NCBI GenBank assembly: GCA_951406725.2
Contig: OX597826.1
Coordinates: 23,064,001-23,128,000, forward strand
From: Octopus vulgaris
Taxonomy: Eukaryota
Length of the DNA: 64,000 nt
Direction: 5' to 3'
Shown: positions 1,739 to 63,762 of the stretch, in pieces
How the letters are laid out: every line of letters begins with the position of its first letter
Position numbering within the stretch: position 1 is the first letter of the stretch
Notes under the pieces: generated by a model
What the model saw: only the letters and a program-made list of their open reading frames with translations
The model's database searches: none
What the model was told of the DNA's origin: nothing
Made by a program: the position numbers and the translations under genes

Positions 1739-3750
1739 AGCATACAGTAAACGTGGCCAGTTTAGCATACAGTAAACGTGGCCATTTACAATTTAGTATG
1801 CTATCTGTTGCCAATTCTAGACCATAGCTCTAACCCTAACATAAACCATAACAAGCCATAGTCTACATAGTTACAAGCAGATAGACACTCTACTGACCTT
1901 CTCACCTTTATCTCATAATTTTGTTGATCCAAACACCTGATTAATAATTAAAGAAAGTAGTTATTTTACTAAGACTGTTCAAATTGATTATGTGTATTTC
2001 ATTGGGAACATGACTATAAAAGAATTTAGCATCAAATTTGATTTCAACTTACATTTTCCACAGCTATTCTAACAACAGTGTAATAATACTTCTGTAACCT
2101 CTCAGAGGAAACATGACTCCTCCTTCACTCCTCTCCACCATTCATTTATGGTTTGAGAATAATTCTATAATTGTTGTAAACTGGAATGGAACTTACTCTC
2201 TTTCTGCTCACATCCATTCTCCATTTAATGCTACTTGGTTTGCATCTTTTAGAGAGATAGATTAGATATAATAAACTCAAAGAGCAACTAGAAAGTGAAA
2301 GTAGTATCTAACTTAGGATGTCTCATAGATAGTGGTGGCAATGGTGTTGGAGGTGGTAGATGTGGTTATCATGGCAGTGGTGGTGGTGGTGTAGTGGTGA
2401 CAGTGGATGTGTATGAGGGCAGCAATTATAGTGTTGGTGTTTTTGTAGAGGTGGTGGTGGTGGTGGCGGCGGCAGTGGATGATGATGATAATGATGATGA
2501 TAGTAGTAGTAGCATTGATTATGTTAGGATGTCTCATGGATGGTAGTGTTGAAAATATTGCAGAGTGTAGTGGTGGTGAAATTGGTGATTTTGAATATGA
2601 TCCTGGTATTGGTCTTGGGGTTGTGGTTGCAGAAGATGGTTGTGGTGGTGGCATTGGAGGTTGTAGTAATGGTTGTAGTGGTGGTTGTGAAGATGATTCT
2701 GATATTGATAGTCTTTGCATTGAGGTGGTGGCAGAGTCAGAGTAAATAATAAGAGCCCCGTTAACACAAGATTCTTAAATTTCGGAGATCATAAGATAGA
2801 GAGCAAGAAGTTAAAAGTTCCAATACTGGCCCAATTCCTACACCCCATATTCTTCAACTATTTTATAAGAAAGGGGTTAATAGCAGGATAGGGATTCAGC
2901 TTAAAAATAAATTGTATAACAAAAAATACATAAATAAATTACTGCTCCAACGATGTAATTTTAGTATGTGTGTATGTATGTATGTGTGTGTGTATGTATG
3001 GATCAAAACAGTTTGATTCAAATTCTGCGGTACTTATATATTCATACATACATATACATGTAGATGTATATAACATATATATATTGTATGTAAACATCTT
3101 TTATATATATATAATGTATGCATCTATAATACACACACATTATAAATATATACACATATATGCATATGCATTAGAATATGTGTGTATAGGTGTGTGTATA
3201 TATATATATGCATATGTTTGTATACATGTGTGTGTGAGTGTGTGTGGGTGTAAAAATAAATATATGCATTTATCAATATATGCATATATCAATATATGTG
3301 TTTGTGTGTATGTGTCAAAGTTTCAAATCCTATAAAGCAATGCAAACAATAGAAAATAATTTAAACGTGGCCATTTACAAACGAATAAGTTTCAAATTCT
3401 ATAAAGCAATGCAAACAATAGAAAATAATTTAAACACTAATTTTATATATACTCAGCCTTTCAAAAAGAATTTAGCTGTTTAGGATCTACTCAAATTTTA
3501 TACGATGCCAAGCGAATTTAGCTGTTTACGATAAGCCGATGTTTACGTTACAAAACGAATAAGCAGAATGATATCAGCTCAAAACAAAGAATACCATTGG
3601 TTAAAATTCGAATAATTAAACTACGTTAAACTTGGAAATTACAATTTCGTTTTCAATTTGGTTTACAATAATGTTTTCTTTTGACGCATTCTACCAGTTT
3701 CAAATTGTTTAGTTAACTAGAAAATTCTGTCCATCTTTTAGAAAAGATCC

Positions 3751-4688
3751 GAGAAGAAGTACAATAAAAATAACAGTTCAAAAAAGTTCTTTTTAAAATA
3801 AACGATAGCTCGAAGAAGAAGAGAGTTCAAATTCAGACAAAGGAATTAATTTCTCGGCCGAAAAAGGTACTCCTGGCCAAATGTCCAATTGGTAAAATAC
3901 CTTGCAAAACCAGTCCTCGGTAATCCTTGGTACTCCGTGGTAAATTCAGTGAAAAACACAAAGACAATTTCAGAAGCAAACAAATTAATTTTTGCGGAGG
4001 GACTACGCCTCCTCAAAAACACAATTCTCACTGTAAAGTGAATCTTTACGCTCGACCACAGGCAGGAAAATGTCTGGAACAGAGTGGAGTCTTTTACTCA
4101 CCAAAAAATATTGGTAAAATTACAGATTAACACCCGCACGATTTTCACTGAAAAAAAAACAAAAAAAAACTGATTTTTTTACGTGGAATCAAGTACTGTG
4201 ACCTCGTAATATGCTGTAAATCCCATATTTGGGTTCGGAAGGGGGGGGGGGCTGACCCCCACCCACCCTTCCGAACCCAAATATGGGATTTACAGCATAT
4301 TACGAGGTCACAGTACTTGATTCCACGCAAAAAATCAAGCCCCCACCCTTCCGAACCCAAATATGGGATTTACAGCATATTACGAGGTCAGAGTACTTGA
4401 TTCCACGCAAAAATCAGAGTTCTTTTTTGTGTGAAAATTCCGGGGTGGGTGGGTTAATCCCCCCCCCCTCCGGACCAATTCCGAACCAAAATATGGGATT
4501 TCCAGCATATTAGGAGGTCAGGGTACTTGATTCCACGCAAAAAATCCGAGTTTTTTTTTTTCTTCGTGAAAATCGTGCGGGTGTTAATCTGTAATTTTAC
4601 CCAAAATTCAATATTTCACGACGAAAGACGTGACATCAAGCAGCAAGAACTCTCCGCCAAAAAAACACGTCCGACTTTGACGAAGGTT
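3751..4688 (-). mobile_element. 5' UTR of the ORF1-only non-LTR element, interrupted by a MITE and truncated at 3751
   Basis: Reverse complement aligns to 12237-12742 apart from the MITE at 4113-4601. Confidence 0.85.
4113..4601. mobile_element. MITE/foldback element with ~36 bp TIRs and internal ~80 bp subrepeats
   Basis: GGTAAAATTACAGATTAACACCCGCACGATTTTCAC at 4113 and its reverse complement ending at 4601. Internal unit CCGAACCCAAATATGGGATTTACAGCATATTACGAGGTCACAGTACTTGATTCCACG present once inverted and three times direct. Confidence 0.85.
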
Positions 4689-4700
4689 AGCAAGCTACTT

Positions 4701-5044
4701 TATTTTATCTAATTTGCCACAGGGCCATTACACAGATGTAGCTTTGCGGGCTGGACATAGACATTAATGGTATAAATGATGGTGATGGAACGAGGATGAT
4801 GATGGGAGAAGACGAAAGCGCCCGCCGACTTCCGTTTCTCTAAAACAATGTTCTTTTTTCCACAAATCATAATGAGGCAATAAACCTCTTACAATGTTCT
4901 TTTAAAATATACAGAAAGTTCAGGTTTCAATATAATACAATGTTCCTTCAAATATACAAAAAGTTCAGGTCACCCGGCCGACCAGCGCTCTTGTTTCAGC
5001 GAAGCACTCACTCAAAATAAACACGTCCGACTTCGACGAAGGTT
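4701..5044 (-). mobile_element. ~345 bp internally deleted mini-copy of the ORF1-only element (5' end joined to 3' tail)
   Basis: Minus strand reads AACCTTCGTCGAAGTCGGACGTGTTTATTTTGAG joined to the last ORF1 codons and the 3' UTR that matches 11920-12224, ending AAATAA before AAGTAGCTTGCT. Confidence 0.8.
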
Positions 5045-5078
5045 AACAAGCTACCTACTACACAGCCACTCCTGCGCC
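5045..5078 (-). mobile_element. 5' head (A-box part) of a tRNA-derived CORE-like SINE, cut at the insertion site
   Basis: Minus strand GGCGCAGGAGTGGCTGTGTAGTAGGTAGCTTGT matches SINE heads at 40636 (GGCGTAGGAGTGGCTGCGTGGTAAGTAGCTTACT) and ~57870-57898 (-). Confidence 0.75.
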
Positions 5079-5635
5079 TAATATATAATTATAAACCTAT
5101 GAGAAAGGAAGAAAATCCTTTTATTTCATTGATTTACAGTTGTTTCATCGAAAATCATCTCGTGAGCATTACCACATTATCATGCAACAATATATGCAAC
5201 CACTGATACATGAGGTGTCACAGAAACAAAATCGAAAATCGATTTTTCAGAATCATACATAAGAATTATTTGCTGCGGACACTTAAGTGAATGATAATTC
5301 ACACCTATACATGTTACACACCAAAGAAAAAAAAAAAAAAAACAGAACAAACCAGGTTGAGTTGACCGGTCAAGAAGAATGATGAATTGTTAAAAAAAAA
5401 GTAAGAAAATAAAACATAAAACAAAAGTTTTTGCTTTTAGACAATATAATGAAATATAGTCTCGTCAACAGTATCTGTATTAAAGATACTTTGTAGTCCT
5501 TTTTGTCTGCCACTTTATAGCAGTCAGCCGTAAAATTGGCATTAACGGAGTTGGATGGTTTTAACCACAGTATCTAGCAGTTACACGAGATTATATCGAC
5601 TCCAGTGCGTAACTGGTACTTATTTAATCGCACAA

Positions 5636-5866
5636 GGCGGCGAGCTGGCAGAAACGTTACCACGCCGGGCGAAATGCGTAGCCGTTGTTCGTCTGCCGTT
5701 ACATTCTGAATTTAAATTTCGCCGAGGTCGACTTTGCCTTTCATCCTTTCGGGGTCGATAAATTAAGTACCAGTTACGCACTGGGGTCGATGTAATGGAC
5801 TTAATCCGTTTGTCTGTCCTTGTTTGTCCCCTCTATGTTTAGCCCCTTGTGGGTAGTAAAGAAATA
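5636..5866 (+). mobile_element. Full-length tRNA-derived SINE with Nin/Deu-like central domain
   Basis: GGCGGCGAGCTGGCAGAAACGTT head; GCCGAGGTCGACTTTGCCTTTCATCCTTTCGGGGTCGATAAATTAAGTACCAG core; 19 bp TSD GGTACTTATTTAATCGCAC at 5615-5633 and 5867-5885. Confidence 0.85.
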
Positions 5867-6207
5867 GGTACTTATTTAATCGCACGCGCAGAGGCAACAA
5901 AGAAAATAGATTTCCATTGTTATTCTAGGAAGAGAGTCTGGGAGAACAAAAAAACTGACAACAAACATCAAGATTGCTGTCTACAAGGCGTGCGTCCTTA
6001 GCACGCTACCTTGCAGCAGCGCGACATGGGGCCTCTACTTCAGATAAGTGCAGTATCTTCCACGTCTTCCACCTTCGTAGCTTGAGAATCATTTTGGATA
6101 TCAAGTGGACCGACCGAGTTACTAACATTGAAGCCTTCAACCGCGCCAAGATGCCCAGCATATTCACCCTGCTCCAACAGTGCCGTCCGCGCTGGCTCGG
6201 GCACATA

Positions 6208-6819
6208 TGTAACGAACTTAATGAGATGCGTGAATATCCTCGTGCACTTTTGGGGTGCACAAAGCAATCACTCACTAGCCGTTACTTAATAATCCAAATC
6301 TCTACTAGTCAGAAACAAACAGGACGCAGACGTAAAATATACATATAACTACTTTATTCTCTTTCTTGGTAAACAATAACAATAAGTGTGTTATCTGATG
6401 TCCTTGATTCTGGGCGCGCAAGGCTGAAAGTTAATAGATTGTAATATTTACAATCTTCAGCCCAAAACAGAAAGGGGTCAAGATGGCGTCGAACAATGGA
6501 GACGATGTTGGTCTGCAACAATTTTGGTTAAAAATCTTCGGCCAAAGGACTGCTAGAATCTAATCCTGACGGAGAGAATATATGCGTGACCGTCGCCGTC
6601 AATCGCTGGGTTCCCAAGTCACCGCTTGCTGGACGCTAGCGGTCAAACGTTCTACGACCCCCTTGCCTCGGTAACTGCTACGTAGGCAATAGGGTCGTGC
6701 TACGGGTGGTTCGCGCATGCGCGAGAGGGCCCTTCCTTTCTGTGCCTTGGTGAAGGCAACAACACGCGCGAAATACAAATGGTCGGTGCGCGAGCGCGCA
6801 CCGTTATAATATCACTACA
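6208..6819 (-). repeat. 3' LTR
   Basis: TGTAACGAAC...ATCACTACA; near-identical to 8333-8944 (one visible mismatch, CCTCGGTAAC vs CCTCGCTAAC). Confidence 0.95.
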
Positions 6820-6830
6820 GGCTCCCCTCC
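6820..6830 (-). promoter_or_regulatory. Polypurine tract
   Basis: Minus strand GGAGGGGAGCC abutting the 3' LTR. Confidence 0.8.
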
Positions 6831-8312
6831 AGTGCGTACGCACGAAAGGAAACTTATTGTAGTGACTGCAAAACTCAAGGTGGACACCAGATAACCAAAT
6901 AGCACACAATAATATAATGGCAAAATTTATAACATACACAAGAAATTTACTAAAGGAAAAAGAGAAAAAATACTCAATGAGCAAAAATCAAGAGTGCATG
7001 CATGAAAGTGTATACGTCACAAAGTATAGAGCCTTCCGCTGAAGGGAGCGAAAGAAAAGGCAGAACTCACTGTTAATGAACCTAAACGAAATTAAAATCC
7101 AACTTCTCTAAAGGTGGTTGATCCTGCAAAATAGCAGTTAAATCAATTGCTGCAGGAGAGGAAATGGAATTGGCAGAAGCTCGCTAGTAACACAAAAGGC
7201 AAAGGTGCAAACATGCTGGTGTGATGCGCGACACAGATAGTTTTCTGTTAATTACGTGACCAACAGTGGTCTAACAGGGAAAAATAATTACGCCTATAAA
7301 TCGGCGCAGCGCATTTGAACATCCGACGTCTTATGAGTCGGGAAAAACTAAGCTACTGCAAACGTGTTGCAAAAAACCAGGCAATACACGTGCGAAGCAA
7401 AAGGCGCATGAAATGCAATAGTGCTTGCCAGACCAAAAAACAGCAAGAATATGCCAGTGGTTAAGCGATTATATGCTTCGTTCGTATAGGAACAAAAGTA
7501 TGACATGCTGGCGCGTTATAATGGACAAACAACCCTCTCTATGTATACGTGACCAACCTAGGGTCTATAGAAATGAGGGGTGTCCACAAAAGGCAAATTC
7601 AGCATGGAAAAAAAAAAAGCGAGAAAAGCATGTGTGACGTATGTATGTGAGAGAGAGCATTTATGTGTGTGTACGTGTGTGCGACAGAAATACATACAAG
7701 GTGAATGCGAGCAAAATACAAAAAATACAGCGCATAGAAAAAATGTCTCTCGGGCTATTCCAGACAAGAATTAATTTACCAGTCTGTAATAGCCTGATGT
7801 ACAATAGCAGTTCGTTCTGTAACAGAATGTTGAAATCACAAAATGCAGATGCCGGTTGAACACATATCGTGTAACGGTTGTGGCTTCAATGCTGTGACAG
7901 GTTAACTGGAACAGAAGAAATCTCGTAGAAAGTGCTGTAAAATCCTTGGTGTGCTAATGCACAAACGGCAAGTGGACTAAACTTCCGCGAGTTGCTATGT
8001 ACATCTTGGTGGAGGTCGACGGTGTTGAAAGGCGACGTTGGTGGTGGAAGGCGACTGTAGTGGACTTGGGACTACATCGTTCTTAGTGATGATAGCGACG
8101 ACGTGAAGTAGACAGACGACGATGGTGATGAGGAAGGCAGAGAAAAAGCATCGATGAATTGATGGCGTTCGTCATCATGGCTCCTTCTACAACTGTTTGT
8201 GGTGGCCGGAAACAAATCGTCGAAAGATGAATGCGTAGTGTTAAATCGTGTTCCGACTTCGCAGAAAAACTGGATTTTTTTGTTGATAAGTGATCTCTGG
8301 TTTTAGACCAGA

Positions 8313-8330
8313 ATCACGTCGGGGTCACCA
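8313..8330 (-). promoter_or_regulatory. Primer-binding site, tRNA-Trp
   Basis: Minus strand TGGTGACCCCGACGTGAT 2 nt from the LTR, the canonical 18 nt tRNA-Trp PBS (as in Rous sarcoma virus). Confidence 0.92.
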
Positions 8331-8332
8331 CT

Positions 8333-8944
8333 TGTAACGAACTTAATGAGATGCGTGAATATCCTCGTGCACTTTTGGGGTGCACAAAGCAATCACTCAC
8401 TAGCCGTTACTTAATAATCCAAATCTCTACTAGTCAGAAACAAACAGGACGCAGACGTAAAATATACATATAACTACTTTATTCTCTTTCTTGGTAAACA
8501 ATAACAATAAGTGTGTTATCTGATGTCCTTGATTCTGGGCGCGCAAGGCTGAAAGTTAATAGATTGTAATATTTACAATCTTCAGCCCAAAACAGAAAGG
8601 GGTCAAGATGGCGTCGAACAATGGAGACGATGTTGGTCTGCAACAATTTTGGTTAAAAATCTTCGGCCAAAGGACTGCTAGAATCTAATCCTGACGGAGA
8701 GAATATATGCGTGACCGTCGCCGTCAATCGCTGGGTTCCCAAGTCACCGCTTGCTGGACGCTAGCGGTCAAACGTTCTACGACCCCCTTGCCTCGCTAAC
8801 TGCTACGTAGGCAATAGGGTCGTGCTACGGGTGGTTCGCGCATGCGCGAGAGGGCCCTTCCTTTCTGTGCCTTGGTGAAGGCAACAACACGCGCGAAATA
8901 CAAATGGTCGGTGCGCGAGCGCGCACCGTTATAATATCACTACA
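8333..8944 (-). repeat. 5' LTR
   Basis: Direct repeat of 6208-6819. Confidence 0.95.
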
Positions 8945-9961
8945 CATATATTTTATGCTGGATGGAAGGATCCCAAAAGGCCTCCTGCATCGGGAACTGG
9001 CCACCGACACCAGAGCATGAGGACGACCTCATTTTCGCTTCAAGGAAGTCGGCAATAGAGATATGAAGTCAATAGATCTGGATGTCCTAAGATGGGAGGA
9101 GGTCACAAATGATCGCCAACGCTGGAGGCGAATACTACACAAGAGGATGGAGCGAGAGGAAGAGAAACTGAAACTTTCCCCCGCGCTCGAAGAAAGGAAA
9201 ACTCGGTAGCACCGGTAGAGAATATCTTCAAATGCATTCGCTGCATGCAAGACTGTCACTCGCGTGTGGGTCTGTGCAGCCACAACCGACACTGCACTGC
9301 CATCAGCAGCTGACACAAAATTCTTCAGACGCAGAACCATGGTATTTCGAGACCCATGGATGCCTATCACAAATTCGTGGCATGTCCTACTTACTAACAA
9401 CGAACAAATTAATTAAAATTTAATTAAGTAAGCCTCAGCAGACATGGACATAAATGATATAATTTGTGCTTATAGAAATGAAAAATAAAAGGAAAAAAAG
9501 GAAAAAAATTCTCTTCCTTCCTAGATTCATTCCAACTGAGTCAGTCAAATTTTCAAACATTTAGGACGTTCTGTTATAAATAAATGGTTTTAGATACACC
9601 GCTGTTACACCAGCGAATACTTTCGTGAGGATACCAAAATATAAAGTATCACATTCCTTTTTGGAACATTCCTTCCAAACAGATGGTATACGTGCTCCAA
9701 ATATATTTTAAGTTTTAAGTTAACTTCTTGAGTCATATAGATTCATAAGAACCGGTTTTCCGGTTTCTATGGCACATATAATATTCCCCCATCTGGACGG
9801 GACGCCGGTCCGTCGCAGGGCGACTCATTTCTGCCAGCTGAGTGGACGTGAGCAACGTGAAATGAAATGTCTTGCTGAAGAACACAACGCATCGCCCGAT
9901 TCAGGAATCGAAACCACAATTTTACGATAAGGAATTCAACACCTCAAGCCACGCGCCTCCT

Positions 9962-10335
9962 GCACGCCGGTCGATATGCTTAGCGTTATTTCGTCTGCCG
10001 ATACGTTCTGAGTTCAAATTCCGCCGAGGTCGATTTTGCCTTTCATCCTTTCGGGGTCGATAAATTAAGTACCAGTTACGCACTGGGGTCGATGTTATCG
10101 GCTTAATCCGTTTGTCTGTCCTTGTTTGTCCTCTCTGTGTTTAGCCCCTTGTGGGTAGTAAAGAAATAGGTATTTCGTTCGTCTTCACGTTCTGGGTTCA
10201 AATTCTGCCGAGGTCGACTTTGCCTTTCATCCTTTCGAAGGTCGATAAATTAAGTACCAATAAAGTACTGGGGTCGATGTGATCGTCTTTCCTCTCCCTC
10301 AATATTTCAGGCCTTGTGCCTATAGTAGAAAGGAT
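9962..10335 (+). mobile_element. Two adjacent/nested Nin-like SINE copies
   Basis: Two GCCGAGGTCGA...CATCCTTTCG...GTCGATAAATTAAGTACCA cores. Confidence 0.75.
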
Positions 10336-10345
10336 TATTACAGAG

Positions 10346-10591
10346 CAATGGTTTTCAGCCCTTTTTTCCCCATGGACCTCTTTGATTCCTATTTTGTTCT
10401 ACATGATCGCCATAGCCATTCAATTTTTTTTTAAAATCCGGTTATATTTTTATAATTAGATATTGTTAGAAGTTGTATAAAAAAGCATTTTGTGCATTGT
10501 TGAAGTATAACCAATTTTTGCACATAATTTTTAACAACTAAAACTTTTATGGATCCCCAAAGGCCATATGGACCTCGGTTGAGAACCACTA
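10346..10591. mobile_element. hAT (Charlie-like) MITE
   Basis: Ends CAATGGTTTTCAGCC / GGTTGAGAACCACTA resemble the CAGTGGTTCTCAACC TIR; 8 bp flanks TTACAGAG / TTACAGTT. Confidence 0.7.
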
Positions 10592-10642
10592 TTACAGTTT
10601 AGAAAACTTCGCAAAATGTGTTTCTAACGGTATCATCAACAA

Positions 10643-11100
10643 CTATAAATTTTCTAATAAATATTTACCTCTGTACTTCTTAAAAGTTTTTCCGAACCCA
10701 AGGTGATATCTTATAATAAGTTCAGAACGTTTATTCAGATTTTCTTTAAATAATAAGATATGCAACACCTTTTCTAAACAAAGATTATATAACTTGCAAT
10801 TTCTGTCATAAGGATATGCAATCATTACGGAAATGCTGTATTGAATCTCCCTTTCTGTCAAATGTTAACTAAAGAAGTATCATGTCTTGTGTTTATAGCA
10901 CGAATTGACGCGTCGTGGTTATGCCATTGGTTTTTTAAAAATAATATCAGCTGTTGTGTCGACATAACCATATTCGCTTCCTTCAGTCAGGACAGAGAAT
11001 TTATATCTGTTTTTACGGAGGCACTCGTTACCCAAAGACATCACTTCTATTCCTGGAATTACATCTTCTAACATTTTTAATAGTTTTTTTTACTATATCA
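10643..11100 (-). pseudogene. Decayed Penelope-like GIY-YIG endonuclease region
   Basis: Minus-strand fragments RCNSRN..NECL..GYVDTT..WHNHDAS..TSL and C-terminal NLCLEK..HILL..LNKRSELI, typical of PLE C-terminal EN. Confidence 0.65.
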
Positions 11101-11792
11101 ACTATGATGTCTGTCTGCTCCCTCAGCCCTACCCCTAACAGATATTGCCTTCTGTTCTCTCAGCCTTAGATATGCAAGGATTTGATAAACTAGTCTATAA
11201 ATTAAAACTGACCCCATATAAACAAAAAAAATCAGTGACAGGCAGAGTCTGTAACAATGAATATCTTCTTGATACCTTAGTAACTTCTATGCTGGAGTGG
11301 AGACAGCATGTTTTTTGTCTATCTCCTTAACTTCTTGGAGATTTTAGGTATAATTATACTAATGTGTCCATCTGTTCTAATTTAATTAAATTCTATGTCT
11401 TTGTGCAGCTGAGGATTGCTCTGCATTTTAAATTGATGTAATGATTGCATTGTTCAATTAAGTGGAGTTGCATGAAACGATCGTACTGCATTACCTCTGG
11501 ATATCCTTGTTGCATATTTTGATTATATATATATATATTTCTTAGATTGGTTTAATTTGTAATGTAATATAAGGAGTTTTCATTTTAATTTATATTATTA
11601 TTTTAAAAATAAGTTTTTTTATTTTGTTTCAAGGTTTAGACTTTAAATTTCTAAATTTTTAGAGGTTTAATCTGAGTTTCTCAGATATGTTGAGATGGAA
11701 GGAATTTTTCCTGCAATTATTTTTCACTCGTTTTGATTTATTTATTTATTTATATGTAAGGGTAACTACTCTTTTACTCTTTTACTTGTTTC

Positions 11793-12224
11793 GGAGGACC
11801 CTGAGTGGCCTTCGCAGGTGGCTGCGGAGGTCATGGGATAGCGATCTGTGCAGGATCGTGAATTCCTTCCCGGAGGACTCCTATAGATTTGTACCTGTGT
11901 GGTCTTGCCTGGAACCGGCTGAGTGCTTCAATGAAGCAAGAGAGCTGGTCGGCCGGGTGACCTGAACATTTTGTATATTTTGAAGGAACATTGTATTATA
12001 TTGAAACCTGAACTTTCTGTATATTTTAAAAGAACGTCGTAAGAGGTTTATTGCCTCATTATGATTTGTTGAAAAAAGAACATTGTTTTAGAGAAGCGGA
12101 AGTCGGCGGGCGCTTTCGTCTTCTCCCATCATCATCTTCGTTCCATCACCATCATTCATACCATTAATATCCAGCCCGCAAAGCTACATCTGTGTAATGG
12201 CCCTGTGGCAAATTAGATAAAATA
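11793..12224 (+). mobile_element. 3' fragment of the ORF1-only element (ORF1 end plus 3' UTR)
   Basis: Encodes ...DSDLCRIVNSFPEDSYRFVPVWSCLEPAECFNEARELVGRVT* (stop 11965), homologous to 14820-14985; 3' UTR ends AAATAA then AAGTAGCTTGCT (12225-12236). Confidence 0.85.
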
Positions 12225-12822
12225 AAGTAGCTTGCTAACCTTCGTCGAAGTCGGACGTGTTTTTTTTGGCGGAGAGTTCTTGCTGCTTGATGTCATGTCT
12301 TTCGTCGTGAAATATTGTATTTTGAGGCTCGACTACAGGTAGGCGTTTGTTGTATTTTTTGAGGGCTTAGTGGAGTGTGTTGCTCTGTATTTAATATTTT
12401 TTGGTGAGTAATAGACTCCACTCTGCTCCAGACATTTTTCTGCCTGTGGCCGCCTATAAAGACTCACTTTTGCAGTGAGAATTGTGTTTTTGAGGAGGCG
12501 TAGTCCTCCGCAAAAATTAATTTGTTTTGAAATTGTCTTTGTGTTTTCCACTGGATTTACCACGGAGTACCAAGGGTTACCAAGGACTGTTTTTGCAAGG
12601 TATTTTACCAATTGGACAAATGGCCAGGAGTACCTTTTCGGCCGAAAAATTAATTCCTTTGTCTGAATTTGAACTCTCTTCGAGCTATCGTTTATTTTAA
12701 AAAGAACTTTTTTGAACTGTTATTTTTATTGTATTTCTTCTCTTCTGTTGTGTTTTCCTTCTCCTTTTTGTGTCTTATTTTCTTTTCTTACATTTTGAAC
12801 TTTAATTGAACTTTGTGTTGAA

Positions 12823-13962
12823 ATGGCAAAGGAATTTCTCGTGTGGGACTTGAAACCTCCCAAAAAATATTTACAAGAGCTGGAAAGAAAGACCGTGGTG
12901 TTGAGGACTTATTTGAAGTCGCTCGACACCATAGCCGTCTTCCCGAAGGCCACAATTTTAAATGAGCTGGCAGACTACATGCCAGCCATTAAATTTATCT
13001 CACGGGCAGTGAAATACGCAACGGTCTGGTTGCTATTTGACTCCCCAAAGAAGCTTGCGACTTCGCAAGCCAGCCCCTTGAGGGCAAAGAAATATTGTTT
13101 CTTCCAAATTATATGGGGAAAAAATTATTGAAAGCTTGGATCTGCGGCCTACCACCCGGAGTTGAGCCCGAATGGATAGAGGACTCTATCCGCCGGGGTC
13201 TGGATGGTAGCAGTGCCAAGCTGCTGAATGTTAAAGTGTTGCCTGCGGCAGATTGGGAGGGGTCGAAAGCAGTTTTGACCCTATGGATCCAATCAGCCGA
13301 AAGTCTGGTTTTTCCAGATTTCTTGAGGACGGCTGGGTCCAGGTATCCGGTGATGCTTGAGGGACGCCCCCCCCACAAGTGTCACCTGTGCCTGGAGATG
13401 GCCACATTAAGAAGAATTGCCCCAGGGACCAAAGTAGAATCCTGGAGTAGTTAATGGTGGAATCTCTCCCTGCCCCCCCCCCCCAATGGAGGGAGAGAAG
13501 CAGAAGAGTGACGAGGAGGTTGTTACATCCTCAAAACGTAAAAGAAAGGTGGACAACAATGGTGACCCACCGAAAGACCCGGGAGCTGCGGGAGAAAAGA
13601 GGACCCGTTGTGTGCACTACAGGAACCTCAAACTCCCGCGGCCCATGGAAAAAAGAAAAAAAGAAAAAAGAGAAACGGGACGCCGCAGGCGGATTGTGAC
13701 ACGCAGACGGCGTCTCCCGAGCCTCCTCAGGCGGATGTGCCCCCGGAGGTCAGAGATGTGGTCCTCTTCCACAAAGGAGGGACCATTGAGAATGAAATAA
13801 GGAAAATGAAAAGGAGGGGCCAATGGGAGGGACTTCGGTCCTGCACGGAGGACCCTGAGTGGCCTTCGCAGGTGGCTTCGGAGGTCTTACGGGAAAGTGA
13901 TCTGTGCAGGATCGTGAATTCCTTCCCGGAAGACTCCTATAGATTTGTACCTGTGTGGTCTT
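12823..13962 (+). pseudogene. ORF1/gag-like protein copy A (RRM-like region plus CCHC knuckle), frameshifted
   Basis: ATG at 12823; stitched frames give MAKEFLVWDL...VWLLFDSP...KAWICGLPPGVEPEWI...LVFPDFLRTAGSRYPVMLEGRPP.CHLCLE.GHIKKNC followed by a K/E-rich tail. Confidence 0.75.
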
Positions 13963-14985
13963 CCCGAGTGCCACAATTTTGAATGAGCTGGCAGATTACA
14001 TGCCAGCCATTAAATTTTTTTCACGGGGAGTGAAGTATGCAGCGGTCTGGTTGCTATTTGACTCCCCCCAAGAAGCTTGCGATTTTGCAAGTCAGCCACT
14101 CGAGGAAATCATGTTTCTTCCAAGCTACTGTGGAAAGAAATTATTGAGAGCTTGGATCTGCGGTTTGCCACCCGGAGTTGAGCCCGAGTGGATAGAGGAC
14201 TTTATCCGCCGGGGTCTGGGTGGTAGCAGTACCAAGCGGCTGATTGGGAGAGGTCAAAAGCTGTTTTGACCCTATGGACCCAATCAGCCGAAAGTCTGGT
14301 CTTTCCAGATTTTTTTAGGATGGCCGGGTCTAGGTATCCGGTGATGCTCGAGGGACGCCCCCCCCCCAAGTGTCACCTGTGTCTGGAGACCGGCCACATT
14401 AAGAAAAACTGCCCCAAGGACCAAAATAGGATCCTGGAGCAGTTAATAGTGGAATCTCTCCCTGCTCCCTCAATGGAGAGAGAGAAGGAGGAGGATGACG
14501 AGGAGGTTTCTACATCCTCGAAAAAAACGAAAACGAAAGGTGTACAACAATGGTTGACCACCGAAGGACCCGAGGGCTGCAAGAGAGAAGGAGGACCTGT
14601 TGCGTGCGTCACAGGAAACTCACCCTCTCGCGGCCCAAGGGAAAAAGAAAAATGGGACATCGCCGGCGGGTTGTGACACGCTGCCGGCGTGTCCCAATCC
14701 TCCTCCGTCGGGTGTGCCGTTGGAGGATGAATTTGTGGTCCTCTTTCACAAAGGAGGAACCATAGAAGAAGAAGTAAAGAAAATGGAAAGGAGGGGGCCG
14801 ATGGGAGGGACTTCTGTCCTGAGTGGCCTTCACAGGTGGCTGCGGAGGTCCTATGGGATAGTGATCTGTGCAGGATCATAAATTCCTTCCCGGAGGACTC
14901 CTATAAATTTATACCTGTGTGGTCCGGCCTGGAACCGGGTGCATGCTTCAATGAAGCAAGGATACTGGTCGGCCGGATAACCTGA
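13958..14985 (+). pseudogene. ORF1/gag-like protein copy B, 5'-truncated and diverged from copy A
   Basis: VFPSATILNELADYMPAIKF...CHLCLETGHIKKNC (CX2CX4HX4C)...FNEARILVGRIT*. Confidence 0.75.
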
Positions 14986-15268
14986 ACGAGTCTAAAAAAT
15001 GTGAAGCATGTGACTTTTTGTGTGTTTTAAAAAAGAAAAAAGAATTCTGAACACTGTGTTGTTTAAGCAAGAGGTTTATTGCCTCATTGTGTTTTTGGGG
15101 GAAAAGGAAAAAAGAACATTGTTTTAGAGAAGCGAAAGTCGGCGGGCGCTTTTCGTGTTCTCCCATCATCATCATTTTTGCCTCACCATCATTCATACCG
15201 TTAATGTCCATGTCCAGCCCGCAAAGCTGCCATCTGTGTAACGCCCTTGTGACAAATTATATGAAATA

Positions 15269-15657
15269 AAGTAGCTTGCTTACCAAGCACATGGTTCCGG
15301 GTTCAGTCCCATTGCGTGTGCGTGGCACCTTGGGTAAGTGTCTTCTACTATAGCCTCGCGCCGACCAAAGCCTAGTGAGAGGATTTGGTAGATAGAAACT
15401 GGAAAGAAGCCCGTCGTATATATGTATATGTATATATATGTGTGTTATTGTGTGTCTGTGTTTGTACCCCCAACATCGCTTGACAACCGATGCTGGTGTG
15501 TTTACGTCCCTGTAACTTAGCGGTTCGGCAAAAGAGACCGATAGAATAAGTACTAGTCTTACAAAGAATAAGTCCTGGGGTCGATTTGCTCGACTAAAGG
15601 CGGTGCTCCAGCATGGCCACAGTCAAATGACTGAAACAAGTAAAAGAGTGAAGAGAG
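15269..15657 (+). mobile_element. tRNA-derived CORE-like SINE body (from the insertion site onward)
   Basis: AAGTAGCTTGCTTACCAAGCACATGGTTCCGGGTTCAGTCCC...CACCTTGGGTAAGTGTCTTCTACTATAGCC...GAAACAAGTAAAAGAG; same family as 19925-20315. Confidence 0.88.
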
Positions 15658-15981
15658 TATCTATATAATGGAGTTTCAATGTTTAACACCCCCACAACCC
15701 AATATGGAAGGACGAGCAACCACCATCTGTGCTCATACTGCAATTTTTAGAGTGGCACTGAAGTTATGTCTCCAAGGCTCAAGCCCGGATTGGAGCTGAG
15801 TCAACCTCTTTGAACTAATATTCACTCTTTTGTCACCATTGCCCATCACTTTAAATTACACTCGTTATTGCTGTGATAACATTAATACCATAACAATTAT
15901 AATTTTAAAGAAAGGAAAGCAATTCTTTTCATGTGTAGCAAAGAGAACAAATCAAAACAGTCGCACATTTCAAATATTATA

Positions 15982-19559: not shown

Positions 19560-19924
19560 TAAACAACCTCGCAACACCGGACGCTACTACAAGTTTAATG
19601 GCTATAGAAGTACTTAATGTTCTGTAGTTAAAATTATTTAGATTAATCGGCCAAAAGATATAAATACTGCATTAAAATACTTTTTATATGATACATACAT
19701 ATATATATATATGTATGTATCATATATATATATGATATATATAAATATATATATGAGATATATATATATTATATAAATGTATCTATATATGAAATATATA
19801 TTTATATATATCATACATATAAATATGATATATATATATATGATATATATATATATATATATATATACATGATACGAGAATGAAGAGAAGAGCAGATGTC
19901 CATTTGGTATCATGTATATACATG

Positions 19925-20315
19925 TGTGGTAAGTAGCTTGCTTACCAACCACATGGTTCCGGGTTCAGTCCCACTGCGTGGCACCTTGGGCTATTGTGTC
20001 TTCTACTATAGCCTCGGGCCGACCAAAGCCTTGTGAGTGGATTTGGTAGACGGAAACTGAAAGCAGCCTGTCGTACATATGTATATATATATATGTATGT
20101 GTGTGTTTGTGTGTCTGTTTTTGTCCCCCTAGCATTGCTTGACAACCGATGCGGGTGTGTTTATGTCCCCGTCACTTAGCGGTTCGGTAAAATAGACCGA
20201 TAGAATAAGTACTGGGCTTACAAAGAATAAGTCCCGGGGTCGAGTTGCTCGACTAAAGGCGGTGCTCCAGCATGGCCGCAGTCAAATGACTGAAACAAGT
20301 AAAAGAGTAAAGAGT
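19925..20315 (+). mobile_element. CORE-like tRNA-derived SINE with uninterrupted target site
   Basis: GTGGTAAGTAGCTTGCTTACCAACCACATGGTTCCGGGTTCAGTCCC; serves as the empty-site reference. Confidence 0.88.
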
Positions 20316-20316
20316 A

Positions 20317-20376
<60 letters not shown>

Positions 20377-42685: not shown

Positions 42686-44945
42686 ATAACAATAATAATA
42701 ATGCCATCATTATCAACACCAGTAGAGTTTCAACACCCACAGGGCATCAATATTTACTTACCTTAACAATCAATATCTGGAATATTAGGAAATTAAATTT
42801 TATTTGTTTAGTTTTCCCCCTCATTTATGAACAGTTAAGACTTTTCTTTTAGTTTTGCCATCAATGCAGCATTTTCTTTCTTCATCTGTTGATAGTCGTT
42901 TGTAATCTTCTCCATGTTAGTTTTAACAGATTTTTGGCACTCATTCTCAATCTGCAAAATAAACAAAAACGATTGAAACAAAAATGAACATTGCATTTTC
43001 TGATTGAATAATGTTGTGCATTTGAATATGTTTTATTTGATGCTCTACCGATTCTGGCAAAGTAATGGCAGTCACATCTCATATAAATACTGAACCTGTA
43101 AACTAGGAGTGGCAGACATGTGGACCTGAAACAGACTTGGAATGGAAAGGGCACATATGTCATTGATGAGACCACAAATGGCAAAGAAAGGACGTTGAGA
43201 TGCAGACCTTATTGGTTGGCTGAACAATTAATCAAACAAGCAATTAATTGGTTAAATGGTTAAACAACTGACTAATAAAAATAAAGAAGTGAAACAGAAC
43301 AAGTGCATCATCATCACCATCATGCAATATCTGTTTTCCATGCTAGCATGGGTTCAATGGTTTCACCAGAAGCTGGCAAGCCAAAGAGCTGCACCAGACT
43401 CCAGTCTGACTTAGCATGGCTTCTATGGCTGGATGCCCTTCCTTTACAGAGTGTGCTGGGTACTTTTATGTGGCACCACATGAATGCTCTTATGTGGAAC
43501 CAGCACAAGTGCTTTTTACATGGCACCAACACACGACTCTTGCAGGTCAGTCTTCTTCCCCAGTGTAAGTGGCCTTAGCACTTCTGCAACAGAACACAGA
43601 TCTTCTTGAGTACAGCAAGGCACCAAGAATCTCGGTCTTTTGTTATCTCATCTGAAAGCTTCAGCTACCAGAGATCCATGTGTTTATTATTTGCTTAGTG
43701 ACCCACCCACCCACCCACCCAATACTACCCTGAGATACAGCAAAATATGTTTCAATACACAACTTCACATCAAGAACCTTGCAGACCAAATACTAAAGCT
43801 GAAATATTTAAAAATTACTTTTTTAGTAATGGCCCAAACCTATTTCTTTCCACGCCTCCCTCCCAAAATTTATTTTTAAAAATAATTAACATTGAAATGA
43901 AATTACAATTACAAAATACCATAAAGACATAAAAAACAAAATATCTTTGTTTTCTTCTCATCTATTACTCGTGACATGGCTGGAAAATAGACAGGAAGAT
44001 TGTAGCTTGGATGTAATTGAATATAGGTCTGTTTACTCAGTTATGGCTTACTCAGGGTTAAACAACTGTTACAATTTCATATATATACAATTTCATATAT
44101 ATCATCATCATTGTTTAAGGTCTGTTTTCCATGCTGGCATGGGTTGGATGGTTTGACTAAGGTCTGGAGAGTCAGTGGCTGCACCAGACTCCAATCTGAT
44201 CTGGCAATATTTCTACAGCTGGATGCCCTTCCTAATGCCAACCACTCCAAGAGTGTAGTGGAGAGAGAGCGAGAGAAGCCTTGCTGGTGCTGGTGCCATG
44301 AAAAGCACTCAATCTAATCTATAAAGTGGTTGGTGTTAGGAAGGGCATCCAGCCATAAAAATTATGCCAAAACAGTGGAATCTGGTGCAATCCTCTGGCA
44401 TGCCACCTCCTATCAAGCTGTCCAGCCCATGCCAGCATGGAAAATGGACTTATGATGATGATACATACATATGCACACACTCATACATACATATGTAAAA
44501 ACCATGCCACAACAGACAGTGGTGCTTGGTGCAGTCCTCTGGCTTGCCAGCTCCTGTCAAGCTGTCCAACTTATGCCAGCATGGAAAACAAGAGTATGAT
44601 GGTGATGATGAAGCTGATGGTGATATACATTGAGCTTTTGTATTTGGTTTGTAAGATTCTTGATGGGAACTTGTGTGTTGAAACATATTTTGTTGCTTCA
44701 CCCACCACACGACCTCTTTTGCCATAGCCACTAAAGGTGGGTCACGGGGTGACCCCATGATGGATTTGGCCGAAAGTCGGATTCCTCCTACATGTGACAA
44801 CAGCTATTCGACATAACGCCAATAATAAATAATATCATCATAATCATTATCATCAACAGCACACACACACATATATATATATTCACGCATACATTTATAC
44901 ACATATATGTGTATGCAGGTGTATCTGTGTGTATGTGTGTATGTT

Positions 44946-54030: not shown

Positions 54031-57000
54031 GATGGCTGTCTACTTGTGACCGAGGAAGACCATTGCCATCCTTCAGGAACATTGTGCGCTCTAGGACTAA
54101 CTTATATTTTGCATTTGCGGCTCCATTGGTGGCTAATGAGCCCTGCTCTTGACAAGCATACACGACTGCAAACATTGCAGACCAAGCTTTCCCCATTCAC
54201 TATACGAGCCGTGCGCTTTCGCGTAGCTCGCTTAAGTTCTTCATGCTGGATATGTGCTCTCTCAAAAGTGTCGATCCCCTCCTTAACCTGCCTCCTCCAT
54301 CTGTGGCGATGACAGGCATTGTTCTCCCAGTTAGTATCCTGCATATCACAGGCCTTTAATGAGGACCTGACACAGTCCTTAAATCGCAGCCTTGGTTTCT
54401 GCCGGAGTCTCCTTCCATTCACAAGTTCTCCATAGAGCATCTGCTTAGGAATCCTTCTATCCTCCATTCTAATAAGGTGTCCAGTCCAACGCAACCGGTG
54501 CTTGTGTACCATCGCCTCAATACTCAAGATATCAGCTGTCCTCAGGATCTGTGTGTCTGGAATTTTTGAGGTTCAGCCAACATTGAGAATGTGTCTGAGA
54601 CATCTCTGATGAAAACGTTCAAGGACCCTTACCTGACATTTGTACAGAGTCCATGTCTCACATGAGTAGAGAAGCGATGTCAGTACACAAGCACGGTACA
54701 CAGCAACTTTTGTTCTCCTTGCAATGCCATGTTGGGACCAGACACGAGACTGAAGAGACCGGAAAGAATTAGTTGCTCTCTGCAACCTGAAAGATATTTC
54801 CTCATCCAGGGAGCAAGAACGGCTGAGTGTGCTGCCCAGGTAGACCAACTTGTCTACTACCTTCAGAATTGTTCCTTCAACCAAGATAGCTGGTTCTATA
54901 TATGGATTTCCTGGTGCAGGCTGGAACATTACAACAGTCTAGTCCAGGCTAATGCTGAGTCCAAATGCCCTGCAAGAAGCAGAAATGCAATTCATGAGTA
55001 TTTGCATGTCATCCACTGTATGAGTGACTAAGTCCCAGTCATCTGCATAAAGGAGGTCACGAATAATAGACTGGGAAACCTTTGAAATCGGTGAAGATTA
55101 AAGAGGCGGCCAGAAGATCGATACCTGACATATATTCCCAGAGAGCTAACCTTAGCAAAAGCATGAGTAAAAGTAGCAGCAAAGTACAAAGAAAAGAGAG
55201 TTGGGGCAAGGATGTCACTCTGCTTAACACCATTCTCTACAGGAATGGGTCCCGCCATGGCACCACCAACATTGACCCAAGCCTCCATCCCATCATGAAA
55301 TGATTTAATTATAGATACAAAGTGATCCGGACATCCAAGTTTGCCAAGTATTTTCCATAGAAAGGCCCTATTTACAGTATCAAAGGCCTTAGTTAAATCA
55401 ATGAATACCTGGACAAGATCCATATTCTGCTCATAGCACTTCTCCTGCATCTGTCTTGCTGTGAAAATCATATCCATTGTCCTTCTACCAGATCGGAAGC
55501 CACATTGAGATTCAGATAGGAAATCATTTACAAGACACCCATTCAGACGAGTAAGAAGAATATTTGCCAGAACCTTGCCAGCAGCTGATAGTAGAGCAAT
55601 ACCTCTGTAGTTACCACACATTGTTCTGGCTCCTTTTCCCTTATATAGAGGAAAAATAATTGCATCCTTCCAGTCCTTAGGGATTGCACTAACCCTCCAG
55701 ACTGCACTAATAAGTTCATGAAGGGACTGTGTGATGCAATTACCACCAAATCGCAAGACCTCAGCACAAATTCCATCCTTTCCAGGTGCCCTACCAAGAT
55801 TCAATTTACTTATTGATGTCATTACTTCATGTATTGATGGCGAGGAGTCTAAGGAGTCAATGATAGGTCTTTGTTTCATAGTATCAATCACTGTTTCATC
55901 CACAACTGACTCATGGTTTAGGAGTTCAGAGAAGAGTTCGATCCAGCGACCTGTGATTTCTGTTGATTTAGTAAACAGAGTGGAAGACTCCTTGGAAAGC
56001 AAAGGAGCTGATGTGGAGCTCTCAGGTCCATAAGCTCACTTCATAAGATGGTAAAGCTTCTTGCTGTCATTTGCATCAGCAGCAGCCTGAACATCACGAG
56101 CAAGATCCTCCCACCAAGTGTTTTGCATCTTCCTGAGAGATTGCTGCAGTAGTGATTTTACACTGTTATAGTGGGCAAGTGCTAGACTTCGCTGCACAGT
56201 AGACAGTTCTCTGTGCAGCAACACACTGTGGGCATGGCACTTTACCACTAATAGCCGTTGAATTTCAGCATCATTCTCATCAAACCAGTCTCTGTATCTC
56301 TCAGTAACATACCCCAGTGTTTCGGCTGCACATTGAACAACCTGGTCTCGAAAATCTTCCCATCCTGCAGCATTTTCAATGCTGGACAAGCGAGTCTGAA
56401 GCTCTTTCCTAACCACATCATATACCTTGTGAACATTTAGACGGCAAGGAATGCTGACTGGCCCTCTTCTCTCTTTCGCCCTAATCACCATTTGGAACTT
56501 TGCTCGCACCAGACTGTGGTCTGTCCAGCATTCTGATCCATGCAAGGACTTGACATTACAAATGTCATAAATGTCGCGCTTGCGGATGATGACGTAATCC
56601 AGCAAGTGCCAACCTTTGGACCTTGGATGCATCCATGTTGTGTGATCACCTTTGTGCACAAAATGAGTACTTGCAATGTAAAGTCCATGTTCTTCGCAAA
56701 GCTCCAGTAGCATGAGACCATTGCTATTCATTTTCCCTACTCCAAAACGTCCTAGAGAGCTCCATGTTTGCCAGTCTGTTCCAACTCTGGCATTAAAATC
56801 CCCCAGTAGAATGACTTTATCAGAATTGGGGATTTTTCTAAGTATGGCTCTCAGCTGGGTATAAAAGATTGTTTTATCTTCATCACAGCTAGTCAAAGTA
56901 GGTGCATAGGCACTTATTAGAGTAGCAAACTGCTTACCCTTCAAGTGCAACCGTAGGGTCATTATACGTTCATTTATAGGAACAGGGAGCTCTTCCAACT

Positions 57001-57720
57001 TCTTAAGGATATCAGATCGGACTGCAAAACCAGCACCAGCCTCTTTGCCTTCTGCCTTCCTTACCAAAATAAGGTGTATCCACCTCCTACTTCCTCAAGC
57101 TGACCATCACCTTCTTTAAGAGTCTCTGAGAGTGCAGCTATTTCAATTTTATAACCGTTCAGCTCACAAGCAACAAGTGCAGTGCGTCTTTCAGGCCTGC
57201 AATCACTCTTGTTGTCCAACAGAGTGCGCACATTCCAACATGAAATGTTTACATTCCGTCCAGATTTTATAGATAAAAAACTCTTCGTCAGTCGCGCTAA
57301 ACTGACCAGATATGGAAAGACAGGCAATTTTTGGTTCACCTTTTCTAGAACCTCCCCGGTCTCCAGGTGAGCAGTGCCCTCTCCAAATGGAGCTGCTCCG
57401 ACACCCATGCAGCACATTCCAACATGAAATGTTTACATTCTGTCCAGATTTTATAGATAAAAGACTCTTTGTTTTTCGAGCGCAGGGTGGACATTCGTCA
57501 GTCGCGCTAAACTGACCAGATATGGAAAGACAGGCAATTTTTGGTTCACCTTTTCTAGAACCTCCCCGGTCTCCAGGTGAGCAGTGCCCTCTCCAAATGG
57601 AGCTGCTCCGACACCCATGCAGCAACCGAATCCTACCGCTGTCTTGGGCGACGAGGAGACAACTTTATATCTAGCATGGGCCGCCTAAGTGCAGGTCACT
57701 GACTACATGCTTCCAACCCG
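54031..57720 (-). mobile_element. Near full-length RTE LINE (APE endonuclease, RT, C-terminal C2H2-like finger), disrupted
   Basis: WNVRTL..IAALSET, SAYAPT, LLGDFNARVG, WMHPRSKGWHLLDY, TDHSLV; APGKDG, NYRGIALL, QCGFR, FIDLTKAFD, GVKQ; CNVCSRVCLSRAGLISH. Inserted into the (TA)n tract of a SINE (53766-54030 / 57721-57900). Confidence 0.93.
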
Positions 57721-60438: not shown

Positions 60439-60633
60439 TGACCCGCCCACCCACCCCCTCTACACATGCCGGAAGTTCCTATTCTTTTCATCCCTGGGTT
60501 GCTTCCCTTGAAGACTGCAAATGCTCTTTCACCATCCCTACCCCTAGTTTCGACCTAGGTAAGGTAATGATCATACAGTGCAAAATATGAATGGGTAGTA
60601 TTACGCAGGTTGAATTGAAGGCTACTGTATTAC

Positions 60634-63600: not shown

Positions 63601-63762
63601 ACCCTGGCAGTTGAGGGGACCTGTGGAAGAGGTAGACCCAGGAAAACCTGGGTCGAGGTGGTGAAGCACGACCTTCGAACTCTAGGTCTCACCAAGGAAA
63701 TGACCAGAGACCGAGACCTATGGAAGTATGCTGTGCGTGAGAAGACCCGGCAAGACCAGTGA
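60634..63762 (+). pseudogene. RTE LINE ORF (APE endonuclease, RT, PHD-type finger), one in-frame stop
   Basis: TLNVGTL..CMQEVRW, SAYAPQ, AGDFNGHVG, QIDYIL; KAPGPSG, NYRGIKLL, QFGF, FVDMEKAFD, GVHQGSVLSP, LYADD; TAA at 61336-61338 is the only interruption seen. Confidence 0.93.

Follow-up and report, generated by a model that had tools for sequence, protein, structure and literature searches.

How do copies of a retroelement without a reverse transcriptase of its own come to lie head to tail at one and the same point of a dispersed repeat? This question is raised by a 64-kb stretch of the Octopus vulgaris genome (the window; G000:C13:23064001-23128000, within a searched genome of 2.8 Gb). Its arrays consist of units that carry the first open reading frame (ORF1) of a long interspersed element (LINE) and that meet one another, or the body of a short interspersed element (SINE), at the 12-mer AAGTAGCTTGCT, found at 12225, 15269 and 19931 on the forward strand and at 4689-4700 on the reverse strand. 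It is very probable that these units, old and broken, are copies of an ORF1-only lineage inserted at one site in the SINE head and likely moved in trans by LINEs of the L1/Tx1 type, which encode an apurinic-type endonuclease (APE) and a reverse transcriptase (RT) and occupy the same site.

Target specificity in the genome

An earlier note, made from the letters of the window, had proposed site-specific SINE targeting, ORF1-only units that do not reflect simple loss of the RT, an autonomous APE-RT partner elsewhere, and a structure distinct from long terminal repeat (LTR) or DIRS elements in which the 12-mer would be internal. Each of these proposals was borne out at the level of the genome.

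Targeting is far above chance. The exact 21-nt 3′-end pattern of the window's type has 85 matches in the genome and none in the reversed control; 64 of the 75 ends shown with their flank lie clearly at the site (as in all such tallies, counted by eye from listings), the other 11 being unclear, partial or off target. The remaining 10 matches fall outside the flank pattern, five of them being head-to-tail junctions. A wider 3′-end pattern gives 642 matches against three in the reversed control, with the site next in 93 of the first 100 listed, and the youngest type gives 212 against none, with all of the first 100 listed at the site and 96 of these entering the SINE body. Two variants of the SINE target are in use, AAGTAG and AAGAAG. 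Upstream of 60 filled sites that were sampled, 31 had ORF1-only units, 10 had ORF2 and 19 had no protein match, several of the latter being short 5′-truncated copies behind a SINE head. No real tRNA gene was recognised by eye in the listed flanks of 3′ ends, a dedicated search not having been made, and contigs from sequencing runs, compared with a young copy, gave generic empty-site joints that are not locus-specific. One 3′ end (G000:C1:32371253) abuts AAGTGTCTT, a word resembling the target that occurs farther along the same SINE, and this joint may represent either a deletion or a secondary site.

Exact sites number 42,662 empty versus 343 filled (∼0.8%), and since so few are filled the insertions probably affect the host SINE little. 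The target site is flanked by motifs that resemble A and B boxes by consensus. Neither ARAGORN nor Rfam finds a tRNA in the SINE head, and acceptor- and T-like stems appear in one of its two folds (z 0.03 and 0.64). From the sequence we infer that the SINE derives from a tRNA and that the motifs would be its A and B boxes.

The autonomous LINEs

The predicted partner was found at the same SINE site and shares its 3′ terminus with the ORF1-only units. The 5.44-kb element at locus L097 lies between two target copies and closes an array of seven ORF1-only units. Its ORF2 contains Exo_endo_phos, RVT_1 and zf-RVT domains, and its best match among solved structures is L1 ORF2p (E 1e-66). Of 144 RT matches to this element, 48 are 96-100% identical, and 13 of those 48 lie in stop-free frames of 1133-1150 amino acids (aa). 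Among the 20 RT loci fetched, contact with the SINE site is found in all 12 (L103-L113, L122) whose RT is at least 81% alike and in none of the eight at 73-76%, of which three end in (TC)n and one ends directly before a whole U2 gene. In a tree built from copies in this genome plus three proteins recorded as unnamed or hypothetical, the seven SINE-site RTs form one clade (SH-aLRT 97). Insertion of these helpers is sequence-specific and accompanied by target duplication. Arrays that mix ORF1-only units with autonomous family A or B occur at L097, L072, L058, L110, L185, L190 and L202, and all element types end in a GCC..GGC stem followed by AAATA, without poly(A). The last 18 nt of the window unit match family A at 17 positions, and its first 41 nt resemble family B.

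The helper displays the traits of the Tx1 clade, namely an ORF1 with a CCHC knuckle, an ORF2 with APE, RT and a C-terminal zinc domain, and an L1-like RT. Indirect support for this placement comes from sister RT families, which have (TC)n and U2-adjacent ends. One such sister family (L114-L116) has an intact 1138-aa ORF2 and ends in (TC)n, a microsatellite-end habit described for Kibi in PMC4494074. At a single locus (L121 6245-6438), another sister LINE ends directly 5′ of, and not inside, a complete U2 small nuclear RNA gene (Rfam RF00004, model 1-192). Two further related LINE copies lie in tandem with the same short terminal sequence (L120 1066-9723), which suggests another site-specific family.

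An ORF1-only lineage

In all 30 loci chosen by ORF1 similarity, the 3′ end and target follow ORF1 without an intervening endonuclease domain or RT. Among the knuckle matches in all fetched loci, a sample biased toward target sites in which some copies may count twice, 110 of 114 are ORF1-only, three are neither, and one, a chimera, is followed by ORF2. In the L088/L098 chimera (9129-9223) an ORF1-only unit and part of its 3′ untranslated region (UTR) are fused to a 5′-cut helper that starts just before ORF2.

Units that are whole and bounded by two target copies are 1.5-2.3 kb long, many with stop-free frames of ∼420 aa, and solo copies only 0.3-1.2% apart lie on many contigs. Across all 45 pairs of 10 ORF1-only representatives the ratio of nonsynonymous to synonymous divergence (dN/dS) is 0.08-0.37, with dS ranging from 0.16 to near saturation, indicating that ORF1 is under purifying selection. 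In a 24-row ORF1 tree, rooted by midpoint only, 17 ORF1-only rows cluster in one clade (100/100), set off from the autonomous ORF1s by a long branch. Purifying selection together with this old, separate clade argues that the lineage is not a recent deletion. A 1.5-kb unit within the same arrays (L083 7587-9110), with a 420-aa frame, groups instead with the autonomous ORF1 side, a placement that points to a second, independent ORF1-only origin.

The ORF1 protein is homologous to that of the helper (29% identity over 196 aa, E 3e-24). Of 3509 database candidates, the only homolog is an uncharacterised Octopus sinensis protein at 62% identity. The N-terminal 210 aa, modelled with AlphaFold (pLDDT 84), give Foldseek matches to proteins with tandem RNA recognition motifs (RRMs) at E ∼1e-4 and low TM-scores, and a CCHC knuckle follows the RRM region in 12 of 15 alignment members; the predicted architecture is thus two RRMs and a CCHC knuckle. 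Atlas leads are CCHC proteins (0.93) and a ZCCHC3-type RNA-binding cluster (0.91). No L1 ORF1p occurs among 40 PDB sequence matches, and HAL1 proper, which is of mammalian L1 origin, was rejected as an identity given the fold and the sole named homolog in Octopus sinensis. LTR or DIRS identity was likewise rejected: solo units lie between SINE head and body with the 12-mer on both flanks, and their sole end repeat is the target sequence.

Junctions, arrays and a proposed mechanism

In 38 complete arrays the stretch identical on both sides is 6 to 18 nt long. Local target variants recur on both sides in L081 and L074 and at all three junctions of L189, and such copying demonstrates a true target duplication. 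Other 5′ leaders are specific to the element whatever the local target (CTTACC in eight loci, an extra T in several unit types, GCA in two loci). The 12-mer is thus a short duplication plus a leader carried by the element. Copies truncated at the 5′ end directly behind a SINE head (L009, L010, L021, L023) indicate independent insertions. By analogy with known elements, transcripts would start inside the target and the cDNA end would anneal to the top strand. As to initiator/DPE spacing, a loose RGWYV motif at position 28-29 is present in several leader types but absent from family A and from the CCAGACAG type.

We propose that the helper endonuclease nicks the bottom strand at the left edge of AAGTAG and that the helper RT, bound to the shared 3′ stem-loop, primes on the AAG end of the RNA, such that poly(A) would not be copied. 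The cDNA end, with its target-like leader, could then anneal to the top-strand overhang, which would make the 5′ junction part target and part element. Each insertion would rebuild the site, and later units would likely land at the head-side junction, as in Drosophila R1, so that arrays form; unequal exchange may have lengthened the runs of near-identical units further. The ORF1 protein, with its two predicted RRMs and CCHC knuckle, is likely to package its own RNA and deliver this to the helper, a role that has been proposed in HeT-A, HAL1 and Ag-Sponge as well.

Several observations weigh against this explanation. Movement in trans would have to be read from the common site, the ends and the mixed arrays, and the ∼18 nt are the sole 3′-end sequence that window unit and helper have in common. 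The ORF1s, at 29% identity, are too divergent for an ancestor to be named, and dS between the deeper pairs is near saturation. The helper would belong to the Tx1 clade by its domain content and target habits rather than by comparison of its RT with a named Tx1, of which there is none among the 120 RT homologs listed. Finally, plain re-insertion leaves an asymmetry in stacking unexplained at ∼0.8% filled sites: for one 3′-end type another unit comes next in 44 of 58 cases (SINE body in 11, other sequence in two, one unexamined), and the stacking type is followed by a different type at 26 of 39 loci, while the youngest type has another unit next in one of 100 listed.

This asymmetry would be accounted for if an array arose in a single insertion event, with the RT, on reaching the 5′ end of one RNA, switching to the 3′ end of another through the target-like sequence on both, and the same would hold for the runs of 6-7 units that are only 0.1-0.7% apart and for the L088/L098 chimera. 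We regard this as possible, though tentatively, as L189 carries its rare local variant at all three junctions, the inner one included, and a junction made from RNA should not copy that variant; L189 fits re-insertion at the head-side duplication, which is also how R1 arrays are explained in PMC2718515. Template jumping or a true preference for occupied sites may account for the asymmetry. Dimers copied from one master locus are not favoured, the a and b partners showing no co-variation across three dimers. It is very unlikely that the units are simple recent deletions of an autonomous LINE, passively copied and with no role for ORF1. The resemblance of their two ends to families B and A would suit such an origin, but beyond the 41-nt 5′ and 18-nt 3′ ends no nucleotide similarity of the window unit to either family was found, ORF1 is distant and forms its own clade, dN/dS is far below 1 with dS of up to 2 or more between subfamilies, and many frames of ∼420 aa are free of stops. 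The ORF1 clade and dN/dS refute recent deletion, barring an unseen autonomous family with the same ORF1. Less credible still is the amplification of one SINE plus insert as a composite, by hitch-hiking or segmental duplication, in which case the common site would reflect descent. Some matches are indeed duplicates (C14 carries five identical junctions and C31 three, and the window has its inverted duplication), but many distinct subfamilies, the helpers and the second ORF1-only lineage share the site, the SINE variants behind the same element vary by locus, and 5′-truncated copies of many lengths stand behind a head. The truncated copies refute the composite, by the test applied to SINEU-3 in PMC4494074.

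The RNA itself may help to pick the target. At AAGAAG sites (n = 30) the 3′UTR holds GCTTC in 12 cases, GCTAC in two and neither in 16; at AAGTAG sites it holds GCTAC in 18, GCTTC alone in none, both in two and neither in 10. The association (Fisher P 4e-7) is overstated since the copies are related. The switch is present in both ORF1-only and ORF2 elements, and the motif pairs with read-through target sequence in three of five folds. It is conceivable, if doubtful, that the motif (AAGCTAC/AAGCTTC) forms base pairs with the top strand, displaced while priming proceeds, and that some ORF1-only subfamilies home to occupied sites, as parasites of a parasite of the SINE.

Relation to known elements

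Target-specific LINEs of the Tx1 clade include Tx1 (in Tx1D), Tx1-Mar (Mariner-N4_AMi), Tx1-8_Crp and Tx1-4_AMi (LTR elements), Tx1-9_AMi (Harbinger), Keno (U2) and Kibi/Koshi (microsatellites) (PMC4494074). The octopus elements resemble them in entering another repeat site-specifically, in forming tandem copies with the duplication between them, and in having non-autonomous passengers on the same target (there SINEU-3). In contrast, the octopus target is a SINE head, no SINE target being named in what was seen of that paper, and the octopus passengers encode ORF1. ORF1-only non-autonomous LINEs are known as HAL1 (from L1), HeT-A (Jockey) and Ag-Sponge (CR1) (PMC5786205, PMC5753468). As in these, ORF1 was kept, ORF2 lost and both ends retained, and origins were independent, with two lineages in octopus; unlike these, of which none is listed in the text seen as of the Tx1 group or as fixed to a site in a dispersed repeat, the octopus ORF1 has a double-RRM/CCHC structure by its predicted fold.

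Drosophila R1 likewise forms head-to-tail arrays with the target duplication between copies and inserts at the 5′ duplication; annealing of the cDNA end to the top strand has been proposed for R1 and R2, and R1 transcripts carry target sequence (PMC2718515, 10.1101/158386). Tandems in general have been attributed to double insertion (10.1101/158386). However, R1 resides in 28S ribosomal DNA with many sites filled, whereas ∼0.8% are filled in octopus and stacking is specific to subfamilies. Dada elements insert close to the A box of tRNA-type promoters, always at one position, and the octopus site would be comparable; Dada elements, however, are DNA transposons in real tRNA genes, and the word 'SINE' is absent from the text of PMC8869645. 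In an octopus, 80 L1-Tx1 families have been counted, with no notes on targets in the portion seen (PMC13282606). Within the openly searchable literature, a scope that leaves outside Repbase, Dfam, Repbase Reports, the Zenodo library of PMC13282606 and subscription papers, we met with no description of a Tx1 family that targets SINEs or of a Tx1 derivative reduced to ORF1. What differs from known Tx1-type target-specific LINEs is the SINE as target and its ORF1-only riders; the anatomy is well supported, and the mechanism is inferred.

With its more than 42,000 exact sites, the dispersed SINE joins the safe harbours of target-specific LINEs, as a landing pad for a community of mobile elements, and an old lineage of the L1/Tx1 group is added to the three known ORF1-only cases. 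The coexistence of helpers with stop-free ORF2 and several selected ORF1-only subfamilies permits a direct test of the benefit of a retained ORF1, of whether an RNA motif plays a part in target choice, and of the reason for stacking in some subfamilies. Studies of site-specific insertion, in addition, have a candidate in a young APE-RT LINE that keeps strictly to its target.

The window

The features of the window are collected in the table. The 12-mer was found at every position given in the earlier note, as was its variant at the second array, and the last unit continues from 15269 as SINE, as the note had stated. Similarity to ORF2 is absent from 11793-15300 and 3751-5078, in keeping with units described as lacking RT and endonuclease, and the CCHC knuckle seen in ORF1 matches PF00098 (E 0.0016, slightly short of the curated cut-off). 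The description of every unit as 5′UTR, ORF1 and 3′UTR did not survive: the window holds zero whole units, all its ORF1 copies are frameshifted, and unit 3 (13961-15268) lacks its 5′UTR and about the first 38 codons. Further claims stood in part. The 12-mer marks the unit joints at 12225, 15269 and 4689-4700 and is missing from that at 13960. A SINE head does precede a unit at 5045-5078, where it opens a separate array on the opposite strand, and none lies to the left of 11793. The hexamer AATAAA said to end the 3′UTR is present, overlapping the target by 2 nt and with no poly(A) tail, and the supposedly empty site at 19931 has its 12-mer and SINE, with the head cut at its 5′ side.

Table. Features of the two arrays and the SINE copies, in window coordinates
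Feature	Position	Strand	Remarks
Unit 1, 5′-truncated ORF1-only copy	11793..12224	+	ORF1 stop TGA at 11963-11965, then 3′UTR; ∼95% to dispersed copies
3′UTR motif GCAAAGCTAC	12178..12187	+	AAGCTAC part is reverse complement of target GTAGCTT; co-variation with target variant, and fold
3′ terminus common with autonomous families	12200..12224	+	GCC..GGC stem, then AAAT..AAATA
Head-to-tail junction, SINE target 12-mer	12225..12236	+	Short duplication plus element-carried leader
Unit 2, 5′UTR	12237..12822	+	12237-12277 has 40/41 identity to 5′ end of autonomous family B (L109)
Unit 2, ORF1, frameshifted	12823..13960	+	CCHC knuckle ∼13380-13420; cut before last codons; fold from intact relative
ORF1-to-ORF1 fusion without 12-mer	13953..13961	+	Right breakpoint of 12-kb inverted duplication
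Unit 3, ORF1, 5′-cut, frameshifted	13961..14985	+	∼80% to unit 2
Unit 3, 3′UTR	14986..15268	+	Sequence
3′ target junction	15269..15280	+	12-mer match
Host SINE body	15281..15669	+	88% over 405 bp to 19931-20326
Unfilled SINE copy, head 5′-cut	19924..20326	+	Sequence comparison
SINE head with variant target, opening second array	5045..5078	-	Variant AGGTAGCTTGTT after head
344-bp internally deleted unit (L006)	4701..5044	-	32 bp of 5′ end joined to 3′ end
Head-to-tail junction 12-mer	4689..4700	-	Exact match
5′UTR of next unit, interrupted, then cut	3751..4688	-	Unrelated insert with inverted repeats at 4134-4601

Units 1 and 2 are ∼90-95% identical to the closest dispersed relatives in the set of fetched loci, and unit 3 is at most 86% identical to its own; the window copies are therefore old. 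Window positions 1756-13961 form a 12-kb inverted duplication, 99.1% identical to DNA upstream (G000:C13 ∼23046550-23058680). At its right end the joint at 13960 fuses two copies that are ∼80% alike; in the upstream mirror copy the unit cut at 13960 ends normally and two other units then follow. No contig spanning the joint was found among the sequencing-run contigs listed, and the inverted duplication that ends at 13960 may be either a real rearrangement or an assembly artefact.

Elsewhere in the window, 44450-44803, suspected of being a helper remnant, has no Pfam match and shows similarity in a short stretch only. A 612-bp direct duplication links 6208-6819 and 8333-8944 at 99.8% identity. 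Other LINEs are represented at 60619-63762 (+) and 54102-57094 (-) by endonuclease-RT frames that are nearly complete, one of which includes an open frame of 807 aa.

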